Source: Deltaproteobacteria bacterium
GTDB taxonomy: Bacteria; Desulfobacterota; BSN033; UBA1163
Direction: 5' to 3'
DNA length: 64,000 nucleotides
NCBI GenBank assembly: GCA_020059605.1
Contig: JAGVBT010000120.1
Location: forward strand, 1,582 to 65,581
Part shown: one piece after another, positions 2,250 through 60,650 of the stretch
Numbering within the stretch: the stretch's first letter is position 1
Layout of the letters: each line of letters begins with the position of its first letter
Translations under genes and position numbers: made by a program
The notes under the pieces: generated by a model
Seen by the model: the letters and a program-made list of their open reading frames with translations, nothing else
Told to the model about the DNA's origin: nothing
Databases searched by the model: none

Positions 2250-3173
2250 TTAAACTTTTTCGTAGACTTTTTCTCCCAAAATCCCGGAGGGTTTAAAAAC
2301 CAGGAAAAAGATCACCACCAGAAAAGCAAAGACGTCGGTATAGGGAGTGCCTCCGGGAATAAAGGCCGCAGCAAACGTCTCCACCACTCCCAGGATCAAA
2401 CCCCCGATAATGGCTCCGTAGACATTGCCGAGCCCTCCCACCACGGCGGCAGAAAAACCCTTAACTCCCCCCATCAGCCCCATATCAAACCGGATGATGT
2501 TGTTGTAGGCCCCGATCAGGATGCCGGCGATGGCGCCCAGCGCGGAACCGATTAGAAAGGTGGCCGCCACCGTCCGGTCGATATTGATCCCCATCATGGC
2601 TGCGGCCTCCGAATCCTGGGAGACCGCCCGGATGGCGGCGCCGATCCTCGTCCTCTTGATGAAGAGAAACATCATGGAGATGAGAAAGAGCGTCGTCCCG
2701 AAAATGATCATATTGTCGGCCCGGAGGAGCACTCCGCCCCACTCGAAACTGGCCTGGGGCAAAATCCTCGGAAAGATCTGGGGATTGCTGCCGTGAGGAA
2801 AGGAAAGCCTAACCGTTTCCCGGATGACCATCCCGAGAGCCACGGTTGCTACCAGCACCATCAGCAGGGGCGCATAGCGAAAGGGCCGGATAACCACCCT
2901 TTCGAAAAACGTCCCGATCAGCCCCGTGAGAATCATGGCCACGATGATCAAGAGTGGAACGAAGAGAAAGCCGGGGAGGAAGGTCACAACTCCGAGGAAC
3001 TTTGCCAGTTCATAGAGGATGAGGGTCATAAAGGCACCAAGGATGCAGACATCTCCATGAGAAAAGTGGACGACATTAAGCGCCCCAAAAAAGAGATTAA
3101 ATCCGATGGCGATGAGCGTATAAGTGCATCCGAGGAGCAAGGCATTGATCAATTGCTGTAGAATTTCAGCCAC
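2250..3173 (-). CDS. livH: Branched-chain amino acid ABC transporter permease LivH
   Basis: 307-aa hydrophobic ORF of the LivH family; operon position. Confidence 0.85.
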   Translation of the reverse strand: MAEILQQLINALLLGCTYTLIAIGFNLFFGALNVVHFSHGDVCILGAFMTLILYELAKFLGVVTFLPGFLFVPLLIIVAMILTGLIGTFFERVVIRPFRYAPLLMVLVATVALGMVIRETVRLSFPHGSNPQIFPRILPQASFEWGGVLLRADNMIIFGTTLFLISMMFLFIKRTRIGAAIRAVSQDSEAAAMMGINIDRTVAATFLIGSALGAIAGILIGAYNNIIRFDMGLMGGVKGFSAAVVGGLGNVYGAIIGGLILGVVETFAAAFIPGGTPYTDVFAFLVVIFFLVFKPSGILGEKVYEKV

Positions 3174-7725: not shown

Positions 7726-7741
7726 CTTGTCACCCTTCGTT

Positions 7742-7925
7742 AAATCCGAATATCGAATATCGAAATTCGAAACAATGACCAAAATTCGAATCTCAAATGA
7801 CCCAAACTCATTTTTTAAGATGTGACATTTTGAATTTTGAACATTTGAAATTCGGATTTGTTTCGAATTTCGCTTGCCTTCGCCGAAGCGGCTTCGCGCA
7901 GGCAGGTGCTTCGAGTTTCGAATTT
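7742..7925. repeat. TTCGAA-rich palindromic repeat element, family A (gene-less MITE-like copy)
   Basis: Left arm aaatccgaatatcgaatatcgaaattcgaaacaATGACCAAAATTCGAATCTCAAATGACCC; right arm gaaattcggatttgtttcgaatttcg plus a GC hairpin gccttcgccgaagcggcttcgcgcaggcagg; arms are inverted repeats; related copies at 13636, 22840, 27846, 41925, 56199 and 56622. Confidence 0.7.
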
Positions 7926-13422: not shown

Positions 13423-13444
13423 AATTGGCTGGGGTGGGAGGATG
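13423..13444. repeat. 22-bp direct repeat of the tRNA-Gln 3' end (aaattggctggggtgggaggat); att-like scar
   Basis: Identical 22-mer at 13547-13568, covering the tRNA 3' terminal 18 nt plus 4 nt of flank; 103 bp separate the copies. Confidence 0.6.
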
Positions 13445-13550
13445 TGCTCGATCGCTCCGCTCCCTCCGCCTCCCTCCGGTCGCCGAACCTGATTCCCCTC
13501 CTCACGTCGGGGAAAGGTTCTCATCCCCCTTACCACTCATTTCAATAAAT

Positions 13551-13625
13551 TGGCTGGGGTGGGAGGATTCGAACCTCCGAGTCCAGGTTCCAAAGACCTG
13601 TGTCTTACCGCTTGACGACACCCCA
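13551..13625 (-). tRNA. tRNA-Gln (anticodon UUG), CCA encoded
   Basis: Folded by hand: acceptor TGGGGTG/CACCCCA, anticodon stem CAGGT/ACCTG, loop CTTTGGA, T-arm GGAGG-TTCGAAT-CCTCC, discriminator G plus CCA. Confidence 0.85.
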
Positions 13626-13635
13626 ATCTTAAACC

Positions 13636-13692
13636 ATAAATCCGAAATTCGAATATCGAATCTCGAAACAAATCCGAATGTTCAAATGACAA
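13636..13692. repeat. Family A repeat, half-length copy
   Basis: ataaatccgaaattcgaatatcgaatctcgaaacaaatccgaatgttcaaatgac. Confidence 0.6.
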
Positions 13693-13733
13693 AGGAGTAG
13701 AGGCTTTCATGTTCGGATACCGATAATATCTCT

Positions 13734-14705
13734 TTAGGGGATCCCTTGAGCCTGGATGATCTTCCACCCTTTTGCTCCCGCCCTCCTCTTCAGCTTCCGG
13801 TATGCTTCTGTCGCCTCTTCTTTTGCGGGAAAGAGGCCAAATACCGTCGGACCGCTTCCGGTCATCATGGTTCCCATTGCCCCGGCAGAAACAAGCATCC
13901 CCTTCATGGAGCCTATTTCCGTATATTTTTCCGAAACAATCCCCTCAAGATCGTTCCGAAGGAAGCGGGCAATTCGAACCGGGGACTTGAATAACCCATG
14001 AAGATTAAAATGATATTTTGTCTTTGTCAACCCTTCGACCCCCCGGTATAATTGCTTGGATTTGCTCAGGGTTGACCCTGAACGAGACTTTTTCACCTCG
14101 TTTTTAAAAGCTGGACTTTGTGTTGCCGAGGGCGTCAATCGGGAATTTTTATATGCCCAGCGAGTTGAAACCTCGAAATTCGGATAGATGAGAACATACC
14201 ATAATGGAGGTAGTGCCATTTTTCTCAATCTTTCTCCGATGCCTGACCCGAGGGCGGAACCTTCAAACAGGAAGAAAGGAACATCCGCCCCTATCTTAGC
14301 CCCCACTTCCATTAACTCTTTTCTGTTTAGATTTATCTTAAGAAGACGGTTTAATGCCTCGATAGCGGCAGCGGCATTACTGCTCCCCCCTCCGAGCCCG
14401 GCACCGAGAGGAATATTCTTTTCTATTGAAACCTCCACCCCTCCCCTGTAATCCGACCGCCCTATCATCGATAGAAGGGCCTGATAGACCAGGTTCCTTT
14501 TTCCGGTCGGAAGACCGGGATGGTTTGTGGCAATCCGGATCCCCCTCTCTCGTTTCAAGGAGAAACGGAGCCTGTCGTAGAGGCTGATTTTCTGGAGGAT
14601 GGTCCTGATCTCATGGTATCCATCCTCCCTCTTTCTAATCATTTCCAGTCTCAGATTGATTTTAGCAGGGGCATCTGATTCAAGCGTTCCAAGCATCTCA
14701 GCCAA
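13734..14705 (-). CDS. ispE: 4-diphosphocytidyl-2-C-methyl-D-erythritol kinase, carrying an in-frame insertion of about 40 codons
   Basis: AKINLRL, GHMP motifs IPLGAGLGGGSSNAAAA and GAMGTMMTGSGPTVFGLF; 323 aa against roughly 280 aa typical; the extra segment is AT-rich and Lys/Ser/Thr-rich (about 13990-14125). Confidence 0.85.
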   Translation of the reverse strand: MAEMLGTLESDAPAKINLRLEMIRKREDGYHEIRTILQKISLYDRLRFSLKRERGIRIATNHPGLPTGKRNLVYQALLSMIGRSDYRGGVEVSIEKNIPLGAGLGGGSSNAAAAIEALNRLLKINLNRKELMEVGAKIGADVPFFLFEGSALGSGIGERLRKMALPPLWYVLIYPNFEVSTRWAYKNSRLTPSATQSPAFKNEVKKSRSGSTLSKSKQLYRGVEGLTKTKYHFNLHGLFKSPVRIARFLRNDLEGIVSEKYTEIGSMKGMLVSAGAMGTMMTGSGPTVFGLFPAKEEATEAYRKLKRRAGAKGWKIIQAQGIP

Positions 14706-14797
14706 TCACTTGTTAAAACGGATAAATCCTTAAACTCTCAAGACCTTACCATACGACGAAACGGGCTCCGTCACCCTTCCCTTTAAACCAAAATCGC

Positions 14798-15265
14798 CTA
14801 TTGGGACGGGGGAAGGATTTTGATCTCGATCGGTCCCACCCGGATTTCAATTCTCTTCGTATCATCATCCTGGGGAAGGATATAGATGACGCTGCTCCAT
14901 CCCTCTTTAATAAAGGTAAGCATCACATTGTGGAGTTCGAAATTACTCACCATTCTCCAACCGTGGTTCGGCATCTGTCGTTTGAAGAAATTGGCCAGTT
15001 GCTCCATCTCCCCTTTTCCCTCGTAGACAAGGAGGCCGGTCCGGGTTGCTTTTGTTTCATAGACAAAAGATCCTCTTCTGTTCAGGCTCAAGCCGGGAGG
15101 CAACGGGATATCATCAAAACGATAAGACGTGGCAATCGCCTGCTCCTTCACCGGTTCCCTCTCGCGAATCGTCTGATAGGAGATGAAGTCCCCGCATCCA
15201 TAGGCTCCCATGAACATAGGAAGCATCATTCCTGCCCAGAACAAACGTTTCCATTTTCTCATCAT
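14798..15265 (-). CDS. Putative lipoprotein, function unknown
   Basis: Signal peptide with a lipobox (MFMGAYGC); 155 aa. Confidence 0.55.
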   Translation of the reverse strand: MMRKWKRLFWAGMMLPMFMGAYGCGDFISYQTIREREPVKEQAIATSYRFDDIPLPPGLSLNRRGSFVYETKATRTGLLVYEGKGEMEQLANFFKRQMPNHGWRMVSNFELHNVMLTFIKEGWSSVIYILPQDDDTKRIEIRVGPIEIKILPPSQ

Positions 15266-22354: not shown

Positions 22355-22909
22355 ATGGAGCAAGGCGATTTTTTTAAAGAAACAATGAAGTTCATCGCTG
22401 ATCGCACGCTCGGGAAGCTGGCAAAAGGGTTGAGGATGCTCGGTTATGATACCGTTTATTACCGGGGCGATGATTTTCATCAACTCATCCATATCGCCCG
22501 CCAGGAGGGACGAATCCTCGTGACCCGGAATACGAAACTGGCCCTTAGACGACCGAAGGATCATATCATTACCCTCACAGAGAACCATCCTTCCCGGCAA
22601 CTCGAGGAGTTAATTCGAAAAGGGAAACTCTCTTTCAACGACGAGGTCCCTTTTACCCGATGCATCCCCTGTAATGGACCGCTCGAGGATATCCCCCGGG
22701 ATCAGGCAGAAGGCAAGGTCCCGGATTTTATCTTTCATCAGCAAAAAGATTTTTTCCACTGCCGCCGGTGCGATAAGATCTACTGGCAGGGATCACACCT
22801 GGGCAACATGCAGAAACGCGTCAAAGAACTATTACATATTAAATCCGAAAATCGAAATTCGGGCGAAGCTTCCCGAAGGGATCAATTCGAAACAATCTCT
22901 AATGATTAA
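22355..22909 (+). CDS. Mut7-C RNase domain protein (PF01927-like) with a C-terminal zinc ribbon
   Basis: FIADRTLGKLAKGLRMLGYDT...; CPCNGPL...CRRCDKIYWQGSH zinc ribbon; the C-terminal 20 aa are encoded by repeat-element sequence. Confidence 0.7.
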   Translation: MEQGDFFKETMKFIADRTLGKLAKGLRMLGYDTVYYRGDDFHQLIHIARQEGRILVTRNTKLALRRPKDHIITLTENHPSRQLEELIRKGKLSFNDEVPFTRCIPCNGPLEDIPRDQAEGKVPDFIFHQQKDFFHCRRCDKIYWQGSHLGNMQKRVKELLHIKSENRNSGEASRRDQFETISND

Positions 22910-23026
22910 ATCTCAAATGTTCGAAACAAATCAGTTTGAGACATTTGGATTTCGGAAATTCGAATTTGTTTCGCCTGCCTGCCGGTAGGCAGGGATTTCG
23001 ACATTCGGATTTCGAATTTTTAAAAG
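22840..23026. repeat. Family A repeat element, gene-less copy
   Basis: aaatccgaaaatcgaaattcggg...caattcgaaacaatctc...ggatttcggaaattcgaatttgtttcg plus a GC hairpin gcctgcctgccggtaggcaggg and ttcgacattcggatttcgaattt. Confidence 0.7.
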
Positions 23027-27280: not shown

Positions 27281-27886
27281 ATGCTTGGCGACAGACTCGG
27301 ACACCGGCTCGACCCCTTTCTTTACAATGCCTATAAAAAACTCTTCGGGGAAAATGGGAATCCCAATCTCTTCACCCTGCTCGGATTCTTCTCCACCCTT
27401 GGCGCTTCCCTTCTCGTCCTGGAAGGGTTCTGGTTGTTCGCAGGCTTGTTCCTAATCGTCTCAGGGCTTTTTGATCTTCTCGATGGAGTGATCGCCAGAA
27501 ATTTAGGGAAAGCGACGGTTTTCGGAAGCTTTTTCGATTCGGTGATGGACCGGTATTCGGACCTTCTCTTCCTTCTGGCTCTCATTATCCATGGCCTGGG
27601 AGAGGAAAACGCTGCCCTGGTTGTTCTCGCTTCCGTGGTCGCCATCGGAACCGCCCTCATCCCCTATGTCCGGGCAAAAGCGGAATCCCTCCAAATCCCC
27701 TGCCACACAGGCCTGATGGAAAGAGCGGAGAGGATCATTCTTCTCTCCCTTGGAACTCTGTTGAACCGGATAGAACCGGTCCTCTGGATCCTCGCCGTCC
27801 TCACCCACGTCACGGTCCTCCAGAGAATCTATCATGTCTGGAAGAAAATCCGAAATTCGAATATCGAAATTCGAAACAAATTCTAA
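27281..27886 (+). CDS. CDP-alcohol phosphatidyltransferase family protein
   Basis: Exact D-G-x2-A-R-x8-G-x3-D-x3-D motif (DLLDGVIARNLGKATVFGSFFDSVMD); the C-terminal tail is encoded by the repeat element. Confidence 0.8.
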   Translation: MLGDRLGHRLDPFLYNAYKKLFGENGNPNLFTLLGFFSTLGASLLVLEGFWLFAGLFLIVSGLFDLLDGVIARNLGKATVFGSFFDSVMDRYSDLLFLLALIIHGLGEENAALVVLASVVAIGTALIPYVRAKAESLQIPCHTGLMERAERIILLSLGTLLNRIEPVLWILAVLTHVTVLQRIYHVWKKIRNSNIEIRNKF

Positions 27887-27988
27887 ATTCAAATTTTTCA
27901 AATTCAAAACCATCTCTATCTGTTTGGGTCATTTTGATTTTGAACATTTGTGCTTGTTTCGAAATTCGCATTTCGAGCTTCGAATTTA
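27846..27988. repeat. Family A repeat element, gene-less copy
   Basis: gaaaatccgaaattcgaatatcgaaattcgaaacaaattc ... gggtcattttgattttgaacatttg ... gtttcgaaattcgcatttcgagcttcgaattt. Confidence 0.7.
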
Positions 27989-29050: not shown

Positions 29051-29107
29051 AAGATGAACCAGGGGGAAAGGGTTCGAGGATTTTAGGATTCGAGTGTAAA
29101 TTCAAAA

Positions 29108-29175
29108 AAGAATTTGTCTTGAACGGGTTTACACCTCGACCCCTTGAACCCTGGACCCCTGGATTCCTTTCTTGC
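29108..29175. repeat. TTCAAGG/CCTTGAA-family (E) repeat
   Basis: gggtttacacctcgaccccttgaaccctggacccctggattcc; overlaps the RND pump 3' end and encodes its last 11 aa. Confidence 0.55.
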
Positions 29176-41924: not shown

Positions 41925-42035
41925 GCAGGCAAATTCGAATTTTCAACATTTCAATATCTTAAACTGTTATTGGTCTCGAACATTTGAAATTTGGTCATTT
42001 GGGATTGTTTCGTGTTTCGAATTTCGAATTTTGCT
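41925..42035. repeat. Family A repeat element, gene-less copy
   Basis: ggcaggcaaattcgaattttcaacatttcaat...gaacatttgaaatttggtcatttgggattgtttcgtgtttcgaatttcgaattttgcttgcc. Confidence 0.6.
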
Positions 42036-56195: not shown

Positions 56196-56685
56196 AAATA
56201 AAAATTCGAAATCCGAATTTCGAAATCCGAAACAATCTCGAATGACCAAAACACAAAATTCAAAACCGTATGATTTAGAAGAACGAACTCCTCAATTTGC
56301 TAAAAATGTTAGGGCCTTCGTTAAAAAATTACCTAAAACTATATCAAATATTGAAGATATAAAACAACTTGTTAGGGCATCTGGTTCTGTTGGTTCGAAT
56401 TACATTGAGGCAAACGAGGCTCTCGGTAAAAAAGACTTTCTTCTAAGAATTAAAATATGTCGAAAGGAGGCCAAGGAAAGTCGATATTGGTTGAGGTTAA
56501 TTGACACCGATGCCAAATCTGATCTGGAAAATGAAAGAAAAGACTTGGAAAATGAAGCTACGGAGCTGATGAATATTTTTGGTTCAATTTTAAGAAAAAC
56601 AGAATAATATTAAACCATTTGGTGATTCGGATTTAGAAATTGTTTCGAGTTTCGATATTCGAATTTCGGATTTCTGGGGTTTAAC
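56196..56685 (+). mobile_element. Candidate composite insertion: a four-helix-bundle gene bounded by about 45-bp family-A inverted repeats, inserted between livH-like and livM-like genes
   Basis: Left arm 56199-56245 (gaaatccgaatttcgaaatccgaaacaatctcgaATGACC) and right arm 56622-56678 (ggatttagaaattgtttcgagtttcgatattcgaatttcggatttc) are inverted; the interior is about 35% GC against about 55% in flanking genes; the gene's first codons are part of the repeat consensus. Confidence 0.55.
56242..56607 (+). CDS. Four-helix-bundle protein (TIGR02436 / 23S rRNA intervening-sequence protein family; same family as DGR Avd accessory proteins)
   Basis: LVRASGSVGSNYIEANEALGKKDF...KEAKESRYWLRLI motifs characteristic of the family; 121 aa; low GC. 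Confidence 0.75.
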   Translation: MTKTQNSKPYDLEERTPQFAKNVRAFVKKLPKTISNIEDIKQLVRASGSVGSNYIEANEALGKKDFLLRIKICRKEAKESRYWLRLIDTDAKSDLENERKDLENEATELMNIFGSILRKTE

Positions 56686-57732
56686 ATGAGGCCTTGCGGG
56701 ACGTTTGACGAGCGTTATGGCCAGGACATGGCGATTTTTCGAATCAAAAGGCATTGGGGACTTCTGATCGGAGCGCTCGTTCTTCTCTACATCTTCCCCC
56801 TCTTCGGTTCCTATTATTTCATCAGCCTGATCAATCATCTCAGCATCACCATTATCATCGTCCTGGGCCTTCAACTCGTCAGCGGTTACTGTGGCCAGAT
56901 CTCCTTTGGGCAGGCTGCTTTCATGGCCATCGGCGCTTACACCTCGGCCATCCTCACCGGAAAGGCCGGCCTCTCCTTCTTTATTGCGCTTCCCATTTCA
57001 GGGATCGTTGCAGGGTTAATCGGATTGGGCGGGGGCGCTCCTTCCCTCCGCATCAAGGGCTTTTATCTCGCCATGGCGACCATCGCTATCCATTTTGTTG
57101 TGATGTGGTTGATCCCTCACCTTGAGATCACAGGAAAGACGCAGGGGTTGCATCCACCCGCACCACAGATCGGAAGCTTTGTCTTCGACAGTGATGAAAG
57201 AATTTACTACATCATCATTACCGTGATGCTCCTGATGGCCTATGGCGCCCGAAACATGGTCCGGACCCGCATCGGCAGGGCTTTTGTGGCTATCCGCGAC
57301 AACGACCTGGCCGCCGAGGTAATGGGGATCGAGCTCTACCGTTATAAACTTCTTGCTTTCTTCATCTCCTGTTTTTATGCGGGGATCGCTGGTTCGTTAT
57401 GGGCTCACTGGATTCAAGTGGTTCACCCTGAACAATTCACGCTGCTCCATGCCCTGAATTACATTGGGATGCTCATCATTGGTGGCGGGGGGAGCATTCC
57501 GGGAGTCTTTTTCGGTGTCATTTTCCTCCGCCTTCTTGAGGAGGGAGTCATGTTTGCGGCTCCATTGTTGGCAGCCGTTTTCCCCTGGATCGGGATCCAT
57601 CCGGCAGCATCCATGAGCGTTTCAGTATTCGGCATCGTCCTTATTATCTTCTTAATCTTTGAACCAAGAGGGCTCGCCCATCGCTGGGAAATCTTTAAGT
57701 CCTCTTATCGGCTCTATCCATTTTCACACTAA
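56686..57732 (+). CDS. Liv-type ABC transporter permease (LivM-like)
   Basis: 348-aa polytopic LivM-family protein; start may be the internal ATG at 56728. Confidence 0.85.
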   Translation: MRPCGTFDERYGQDMAIFRIKRHWGLLIGALVLLYIFPLFGSYYFISLINHLSITIIIVLGLQLVSGYCGQISFGQAAFMAIGAYTSAILTGKAGLSFFIALPISGIVAGLIGLGGGAPSLRIKGFYLAMATIAIHFVVMWLIPHLEITGKTQGLHPPAPQIGSFVFDSDERIYYIIITVMLLMAYGARNMVRTRIGRAFVAIRDNDLAAEVMGIELYRYKLLAFFISCFYAGIAGSLWAHWIQVVHPEQFTLLHALNYIGMLIIGGGGSIPGVFFGVIFLRLLEEGVMFAAPLLAAVFPWIGIHPAASMSVSVFGIVLIIFLIFEPRGLAHRWEIFKSSYRLYPFSH

Positions 57733-57789: not shown

Positions 57790-57890
57790 TAGATTGGAAG
57801 GGTTCCAGGGGTCAAGGATTCAAGGCTTCCAGTCATCCGAACATAAAATTTAAAACTCGAACCCCAGAATCCTCGAATCCTTGAACCCTT
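57790..57890. repeat. TTCAAGG/CCTTGAA-family (E) palindromic repeat
   Basis: gggttccaggggtcaaggattcaaggc ... gaatcctcgaatccttgaaccc. Confidence 0.6.
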
Positions 57891-57911
57891 TTAAAACGAA
57901 AGGAGGTTACG

Positions 57912-60552: not shown

Positions 60553-60650
60553 ATAGGGTTCAAGGGGTCAAGGGGTCCAGGGTTCAAGTGTCCGTTAATC
60601 AATACAGTTTTTTGAATCCTTGAACCCTTGGCTCCTTGAACCCTTTGTTT
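60553..60650. repeat. TTCAAGG/CCTTGAA-family (E) palindromic repeat
   Basis: gggttcaaggggtcaaggggtccagggttcaag ... gaatccttgaacccttggctccttgaaccc. Confidence 0.65.

Follow-up and report, generated by a model that had tools for sequence, protein, structure and literature searches.

The essential isoprenoid-pathway kinase IspE is longer than usual in one deltaproteobacterial genome, which raises the question of what its additional residues are and how they came into the gene. We explored this issue in 64,000 nucleotides (nt) of contig JAGVBT010000120.1 (Deltaproteobacteria bacterium, assembly GCA_020059605.1), a stretch called the window below. The ispE coding sequence lies on the minus strand at 13734-14705 and encodes 323 amino acids (aa). 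A preliminary description of this DNA had proposed an AT-rich, in-frame, repeat-like insertion of about 40 codons at 13990-14125. We found that an in-frame insertion of 36 codons does exist, that its coordinates are different, and that the same element is dispersed in many genomes. [quoted passage not shown]

The identity of the host gene was supported by its open reading frame (ORF), by Pfam and by structure matches. Pfam recognised GHMP_kinases_N at residues 71-149 (1.4e-19) and GHMP_kinases_C at residues 246-307 (3.3e-10), and both domains are intact. The top matches of a sequence search against solved structures were IspE enzymes (1e-36). The PxGxGLGGGSSNAA motif and the other IspE motifs are invariant in the homologue alignment A1, and the window gene has kept them. 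In the Protein Data Bank alignments, the stretch between query residues 189/191 and 250/251 takes about 60 residues, whereas it takes 27 in the Thermus IspE and 17 in the E. coli IspE, an excess of about 35-40 residues over the solved structures. The unusual length that had been described is thus real: the GHMP kinase domains are intact, and about 36 residues are extra relative to the structures and to 80 of 120 homologues. The gene order around the locus (NifU, a hypothetical gene, ispE, tRNA-Gln, prs, L25, pth) is conserved.

The boundaries of the insert were set by protein and DNA alignment against relatives without it, and a covariance model of the repeat family (R1, see below) agreed. The inserted copy occupies 14031-14138 on the minus strand, that is, 108 nt with the 5' TTGAC included, or 36 codons for IspE residues 190-225 (LTPSATQSPAFKNEVKKSRSGSTLSKSKQLYRGVEG; LTPSATQ...RGVEG). 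It is located between the ...STRWAY segment and NDLE, the position that had been proposed. The end of the insert had been misplaced, because LTKTKYHFNLHG, which follows the insert, is conserved in the relatives lacking it. Foreign codon usage in an AT-rich block could also be ruled out, since the GC content is 0.50 in the insert, 0.494 in ispE and 0.516 in the window, and the element family is GC-rich. On direct reading of the sequence, the left TTGAC (14134-14138, minus strand) forms the Leu-Thr codons TTG ACG that open the insert. The right one (14026-14030, minus strand) forms the codons TTG ACA, also Leu-Thr, of the conserved LTKTKY, and it is the sole TTGAC at empty sites.

We then compared the 120 closest IspE proteins. 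At exactly this site, 40 of them carry 27-51 extra aa and 80 carry none. The inserts have the motifs LT(R/H/P)S(T/A)..., ...RSGSTLS... and ...G(V/A)EG in common. The question of whether close relatives have an IspE of the same length therefore has a mixed answer, and the two nearest relatives of the window protein (P0001 and P0002, 89% identical outside the insert) are without the insert. In a neighbour-joining tree that was built with the insert masked, presence and absence are scattered and at least 23 changes are needed. The subtypes of the insert nevertheless track the host clades; for example, only related IspE lineages have the 45-aa form, which contains an additional PRSELGSKT module.

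At the DNA level, empty ispE sites read ...TTCATA-TTGAC-AAAAAC... with a single TTGAC (loci L001 and L207), and filled sites read TTGAC-CCGTTCGAC...GTCGAAGGG-TTGAC-AAAAAC. The clearest pair of alleles comes from two different samples. Over about 3.9 kb, the filled locus L206 (135 nt) and the empty locus L207 show 15 mismatches and are 99.6% identical, and they differ by one clean 135-nt indel that leaves a single TTGAC. A pattern scan of metagenomes for further IspE relatives, in which the back-translated patterns were too general, returned about seven close relatives.

Two of the loci have unusual arrangements. In the long-read metagenome-assembled genome (MAG) MFD03726.bin.2.155 (contigs CAWHBU01; L200, positions 2012-2179 and 2944-3057), the element occurs in ispE and, as a second copy, about 200 nt upstream; the ORF of ispE is in pieces there, probably through long-read frameshift errors. 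Locus L009 (4386-4632) has a diverged 43-aa insert at the same place of IspE (DKRVSASTPSPSTALGALSHSALSSWPKGLSKGKLQPLTRKAKG), without the left TTGAC and the central hairpin of the element. It retains CCGAAGGG-like motifs and is probably a much older or rearranged copy.

To define the family, one genome per species was scanned with a pattern that occurs only in the element, namely TCAGGGTCAACCCTGAGC, a gap of 18-48 nt and then GARGG. The pattern was found in at least 119 places of the species-representative genomes. The hosts of the matches listed are nearly all MAGs of Thermodesulfobacteriota, "Deltaproteobacteria", Syntrophaceae or Desulfobacteraceae. Single MAGs can hold many loci (at least 21 in CAZFJD01, 13 in PEUO01, 9 in JBEKWN01, 6 in CAWGAV01 and 5 in CAWHBU01). 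Among the matches listed, 4 of 120 copies are located in ispE and the flanks of the rest are unrelated; about 85-90% of the copies are intergenic.

The standard unit of 108 nt reads TTGAC CCATTCGGCGGCGCC AAGCCCCGCCTTTGAAGGCGGGG TAAAGAAGCGCCGC TCAGGGTCAACCCTGAGC AAGCCCCAGC(C/A)TT(C/T)A(G/T)GCTGGGG AGTCGAAGGG, followed by TTGAC. Longer forms contain an extra module CCCTCGGCCTGAGCTCGGGTCGAAGGC or a larger one, the optional modules being 27-55 nt long. The variants span roughly 60 to 185 nt (63-185 nt in one set after subtraction of the flanking TTGAC), which leaves no room for a transposase gene. TTGAC starts 82 of 83 full copies and directly follows 74 of the 83, where it may alternatively be part of the element itself rather than a target-site duplicate. 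The bases after the right TTGAC are T-rich, and the GC content is 0.63 in the element against about 0.37 in its flanks.

The covariance model matched the window end to end at 14026-14138 (78.2 bits, E 8e-18). The copy in ispE is old and decayed, because many of its stem positions are mismatched, and both this copy and that of L200 have strongly diverged from the family consensus. It is also alone: no second copy was found in the 64 kb by blastn, tblastn, nhmmer or the covariance model with filters off, so that the repeat search which had been proposed for the insert DNA gave nothing within the window. No copy was found in the viral contigs searched, and Rfam (E up to 1) gave no match to the element at five loci with intergenic family copies. 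The element sequence was not found in the searchable literature, in which the best-ranked papers naming these taxa made no mention of MITEs.

Short variants of about 55-90 nt, which consist of the TTGAC ends, the terminal helix and the central hairpin only, were observed at loci L101, L110, L145, L148, L185, L195, L196 and L204. Their hosts are MAGs of Nitrospirota, Omnitrophota and Planctomycetota; thus, the conserved core spans phyla.

The fold of the element was tested on 38 copies with five helices, P1 at the ends, P2, P3, the central P4, and P5. Standard pairs are formed in 93% of the cells across the five helices, and the paired cells fall to 30-50% when the pairing register is shifted. 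We counted 15 pairs that had changed on both sides, against 8.1 in shuffles, and only 1 of 500 shuffles reached 15. P1 is a terminal inverted repeat (CCC(A)TTCGRC / GYCGAAGGG) with 98% of its cells paired. The hairpins P3 and P5 resemble each other, have the same orientation, and CAAG stands before each. The P4 consensus is CTCAGGG-TCAA-CCCTGAG.

P1 and P4 can be located in the minus strand of ispE. The 5' arm of P1 (TTGACGCCCTCGGC, 14125-14138), which was assigned from the sense-strand RNA fold, forms the terminal inverted repeat with the 3' arm (GGTCGAAGGGTTGA, 14026-14039), which was assigned from the RNA fold, the family structure and model R1. Helix P4, the fourth of the family structure, corresponds to the central hairpin GTTCAGGG-TCAA-CCCTGAGC at 14064-14083 and encodes RSGSTLS. 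In the covariance model alignment, P4 is intact in this otherwise decayed copy. The hairpin that had been noticed earlier is genuine: TCAGGGTTGACCCTGA stands at 14066-14081 and is unique in the window.

What does the element add to a protein? In the frame used by ispE (+0), the family consensus translates as LTHSAAPSPAFEGGVKKRRSGSTLSKPQPSGWGVEG, which is nearly identical to the inserts of homologues P0018 and P0003, and the conserved peptide RSGSTLS is the translation of P4. In the AlphaFold model, IspE residues 190-232 have pLDDT values below 50 and no secondary structure, and they lie between the helices at 181-186 and 235-238. The model as a whole resembles IspE structures, with target-normalised TM-scores of 0.62-0.71 for 15 of the 17 chains listed and a lowest value of 0.60. 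The most economical reading of this prediction is that the insert forms a tolerated, disordered surface loop. The suggestion that an essential kinase tolerates a repeat-like insert in a loop thus stands, on the basis of a multi-copy family and a predicted disordered loop; the AT-richness, the boundaries and the link to another repeat of the window (family E, see below) that had accompanied it do not.

IspE is not the only protein affected. A radical SAM enzyme (L144) has a copy within its ORF in the same frame as ispE, with LTH on both sides. In a GNAT acetyltransferase (L089), an antisense copy adds 53 aa and splits the domain, and in MlaA (L194) a copy lies within the ORF after the signal peptide. 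In three MAGs, ribosomal protein L30 has a C-terminal extension of about 47 residues (NPSTPRPEGQGSLRVDPEGR...) that the element encodes, and the L15 gene comes after it. These copies are antisense at the gene's 3' end, between rpmD and rplO (L090 4707-5022, L140 and L165).

These results could be explained as follows. The element sits in sense orientation at a TTGAC that forms the Leu-Thr codons of ...NF(I/V)-LT-KTKY..., and its frame has no stop codon. Ribosomes most likely read through it, and the product would be an IspE with a disordered loop, rich in Lys, Ser and Thr, between the N and C domains of the GHMP kinase and with its catalytic motifs untouched. Insertion would occur 3' of TTGAC, in one orientation, by an enzyme supplied in trans. 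Our preferred candidate is a transposase of the IS200/IS605 type (HUH/Y1) acting on the folded single strand, which would also remove the element seamlessly. Such an enzyme is favoured because the target is fixed and orientation-specific, because P3 and P5 are direct hairpins with CAAG, and because loss is seamless. It is also favoured because TTGAT is the target of ISDra2 and, for an ISDra2-like element, TTGAC is the predicted transposon-adjacent motif and site of left-end cleavage (PMC12415229). The insertion into ispE probably happened once, long ago; seamless loss, together with homologous exchange between strains, may since have sorted the filled and empty alleles.

Several points weigh against this explanation or parts of it. 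In about 0.9 Mb of element-bearing loci, we found no transposase, no autonomous element with matching ends and no multi-copy ORF, and crude motif scans of these loci for HUH (Y1) and RuvC (TnpB) domains found none. Paired-end and solo-end searches for a parent element returned nothing, as did the ORFs beside solo ends, and all-against-all clustering of 1067 ORFs from element loci yielded housekeeping genes only. The element has a strong terminal inverted repeat, P1, a feature that canonical IS200/IS605 elements lack. The invariance of P4 was imposed by the search pattern and says nothing; the backing for P1 and P4 is conservation alone, because P1 has no double-sided changes and P4 was fixed by the pattern. 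The counts of G-T and A-C wobbles are symmetric in P2-P5, which gives no sign of one particular folding strand, and we rejected strand-specific folding as a feature of the element. The finding that every ispE copy is in frame is subject to ascertainment bias, since a broken ORF would not reach the protein database. That the insert is translated and the enzyme active is likewise our inference.

The history of the alleles is also less simple than the clean indel of L206 and L207 would imply. Of their 15 mismatches, 11 flank the indel on its two sides, no farther than about 110 nt from it (L206 3481-3796). This cluster suggests a short recombination patch that would have imported an old allele. 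Because of it, part of the scatter on the tree is attributed to recombination of old alleles, not to fresh excision, and the whole scatter would be a mix of seamless loss and allele exchange.

A serious rival is a classical DDE-type MITE, for which a cut-and-paste transposase binds the terminal inverted repeats and duplicates a preferred 5-bp TTGAC target. Loss would then come from replication slippage between the two TTGAC copies, aided by the hairpin. We take this as possible, at clearly less than even odds. It would account well for the terminal inverted repeat with its 98% pairing and for the 5-bp direct repeat at filled sites that is single at empty sites; small size and high copy number also fit, and the element shows the defining MITE features given in PMC10969869. 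However, in about 90-99% of the copies neither the sequence of the flanking repeat nor its orientation relative to the element varies. Such a fixed orientation counts against a DDE-type MITE, because a symmetric element in a non-palindromic target is expected in both orientations. Moreover, no DDE transposase and no parent insertion sequence (IS) with these ends was found in the loci examined.

A more speculative alternative is that the element belongs to an undescribed class of micro-transposons. It would enter and leave TTGAC seamlessly, either through a folded single strand or through a site-specific crossover at GGG-TTGAC-CCC. This motif recurs at the predicted circle junction (GTCGAAGGGTTGACCCATTCG) and, inverted, in P4. 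We consider this unlikely, and less probable than the DDE-type MITE. If it were true, an insertion in an essential gene could be undone and populations would maintain filled alongside empty alleles; the P1 and P4 core would serve as substrate for recombination by an enzyme not yet tied to miniature elements.

The scattered distribution in ispE could also be caused by many independent entries at the same site, with the element homing to TTGAC, rather than by one entry followed by losses. The number of state changes on the tree and the obligatory TTGAC target would agree with this. We regard it as improbable. A single ancient insertion is favoured over repeated homing because the insert subtypes follow the IspE clades. 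The mismatches around the indel of L206 and L207 point to the exchange of old alleles, and the strong divergence of the window and L200 copies means that they are old. In addition, a genome contains far too many TTGAC sequences for this target to account for repeated hits at a single one.

It is very unlikely that the insert is a lineage-specific functional loop that arose within IspE (e.g., for regulation or phosphorylation at RRSGS), with the dispersed copies either derived from it or of separate origin. Most homologues that carry the insert share the conserved RSGSTLS core, and the insert is kept in frame across many lineages, as a functional loop would be. However, the stretch that encodes the conserved peptide is exactly the P4 hairpin, and the copy census contradicts this view: more than 100 copies with unrelated flanks, mostly intergenic, share the whole 108 nt. 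The nearest relatives and near-identical strains do without the insert and show no other change, and AlphaFold shows no structure for it.

Equally remote is an intron- or intein-like removal at the RNA or protein level that would restore an IspE of normal length: the sense RNA of the ispE insert folds better than shuffles (z = -3.4) and the antisense RNA does not (z = -0.8), and paired ends would bring both junctions together, but 108 nt and 36 aa are far below the sizes of self-splicing introns and inteins, the intergenic family copies tested had no Rfam match, and the stems are decayed in the window copy. The better fold of the sense strand is explained by invariant wobble pairs in P1. The ispE copies, moreover, are always stop-free and a multiple of three in length, compared with 23 of 80 copies elsewhere, a restriction that is expected only if the element is translated. 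An integron attC-like reading was dropped, since the ends are direct TTGAC repeats and not inverted core sites.

The preliminary description had also read an antisense promoter into the insert. A sigma-70-like site, TTGTCA-17-TATAAT, is indeed present on the plus strand at 14024-14052 and agrees with 11 of 12 consensus positions; however, such sites are no commoner than in shuffles (2 found within 13500-15000, 1.4 expected). Judged from its letters, the site is a by-product: its -35 hexamer complements the target site in ispE, and its -10 hexamer is the decayed P5 loop.

Other repeats exist in the window. Intergenic inverted repeats of the octamers GGGTTCAA, GGGGTCAA and GGATTCAA are located at 29061-29170, 57791-57891 and 60555-60646, just upstream of genes, with two arms facing each other across 20-40 nt. 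They are probably the "family E" whose core the ispE hairpin had been said to resemble. This kinship was rejected. Within the window, model R1 scores only the ispE copy; with filters off it gave no match at the three octamer loci, and the best score outside ispE was 13 bits. The heptamer GGGTCAA is all that the octamer repeats and the element have in common.

AT-rich intergenic repeats of about 8-nt units (AAATCCGA / AATTCGAA / TATCGAAA ...) occur at least six times (7741-7872, 13637-13696, 22839-23020, 27845-27981, 41983-42032 and 56201-56686), and one of them lies directly downstream of ispE, beside tRNA-Gln. These TCGAAAT repeats, too, have no relation to the ispE element. The window also contains a direct repeat of 21 nt, AATTGGCTGGGGTGGGAGGAT, at 13423-13443 and 13548-13568. 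Its second copy forms the 3' end of tRNA-Gln (13551-13625, minus strand); the first stands between this tRNA and prs, at a distance of about 125 nt. Such a duplicated tRNA end can be the scar of an integrated element.

The dispersed element has several consequences. It defines an abundant repeat family with a fixed TTGAC target and a fold backed by covariation, found neither in Rfam nor in the searchable literature. It explains why IspE falls into two length classes in these lineages (about 284 and 320-339 aa), and it warns annotators not to take the IspE loop for a functional subfamily feature. The filled and empty sites of strains that are 99.6% identical are a natural experiment on the tolerance of a GHMP kinase loop and on the loss of the element.

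Among known systems, the REP and BIME repeats (repetitive extragenic palindromes and their mosaic assemblies), which are mobilised by RAYT transposases, are also GC-rich, intergenic and palindromic, with high copy number and modular hairpin assemblies. REPs are described as 20-40 nt long with GTAG or CGTC tags (PMC3733652); the element differs from them in its 108-nt unit, its TTGAC ends and its lack of a GTAG or CGTC tag.

The IS200/IS605 elements and their miniature derivatives (palindrome-associated transposable elements, PATEs) come closer. Like them, the element stands in one orientation 3' of a fixed penta-nucleotide (82 of 83 copies), would be excised seamlessly, and has similar hairpins of the same orientation near both ends (P3 and P5). 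Its terminal inverted repeat P1 and its central hairpin P4 are foreign to that family, however, and no TnpA or TnpB was found near any copy in the loci examined, so that the element is at most a putative member of this group.

Bacterial MITEs such as Coxiella QMITE1/2, ERIC, BOX and Correia elements are similar in being non-autonomous and multi-copy, with terminal inverted repeats and flanking direct repeats. They occasionally form in-frame fusions and C-terminal extensions, and some carry promoter-like sequences. The enhC gene of Coxiella, for example, has been extended by QMITE2 (PMC5896051). However, their direct repeats vary in sequence, whereas that of the element is always TTGAC. At 108 nt the element is also smaller, and its five helices form a conserved architecture to which modules of 27-55 nt can be added.

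The nearest analogue is found in the Rickettsia palindromic elements (RPEs), which are short mobile palindromes, about 100-150 bp in length. They lie in frame in unrelated housekeeping genes and add a conserved peptide that is tolerated (PMC10969869). Here too, in-frame insertion into functional genes adds a conserved peptide, and it was seen in IspE, radical SAM, GNAT, MlaA and L30. The same 36-aa module appears in IspE and the radical SAM enzyme, and an antisense-frame module appears in the GNAT acetyltransferase and L30. The hosts differ, since they are Thermodesulfobacteriota or Syntrophaceae-like MAGs from anoxic environments and not intracellular Rickettsia. Most copies of the element (roughly 85-90%) are intergenic and the intragenic ones are the exception; its TTGAC ends are invariant and orientation-specific, and its ispE copy is polymorphic among close strains. 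The RPEs thus offer an analogue, not a membership, and the likeness is one of description, not of sequence comparison with RPE families 1-10. Even so, selfish DNA of the RPE style inside protein genes is not limited to intracellular Rickettsia; it is also found in environmental Thermodesulfobacteriota, where it reaches an essential kinase of the isoprenoid pathway. The in-frame insertion of miniature elements into bacterial genes is already known; here it is seen with a new element family and in an essential enzyme.

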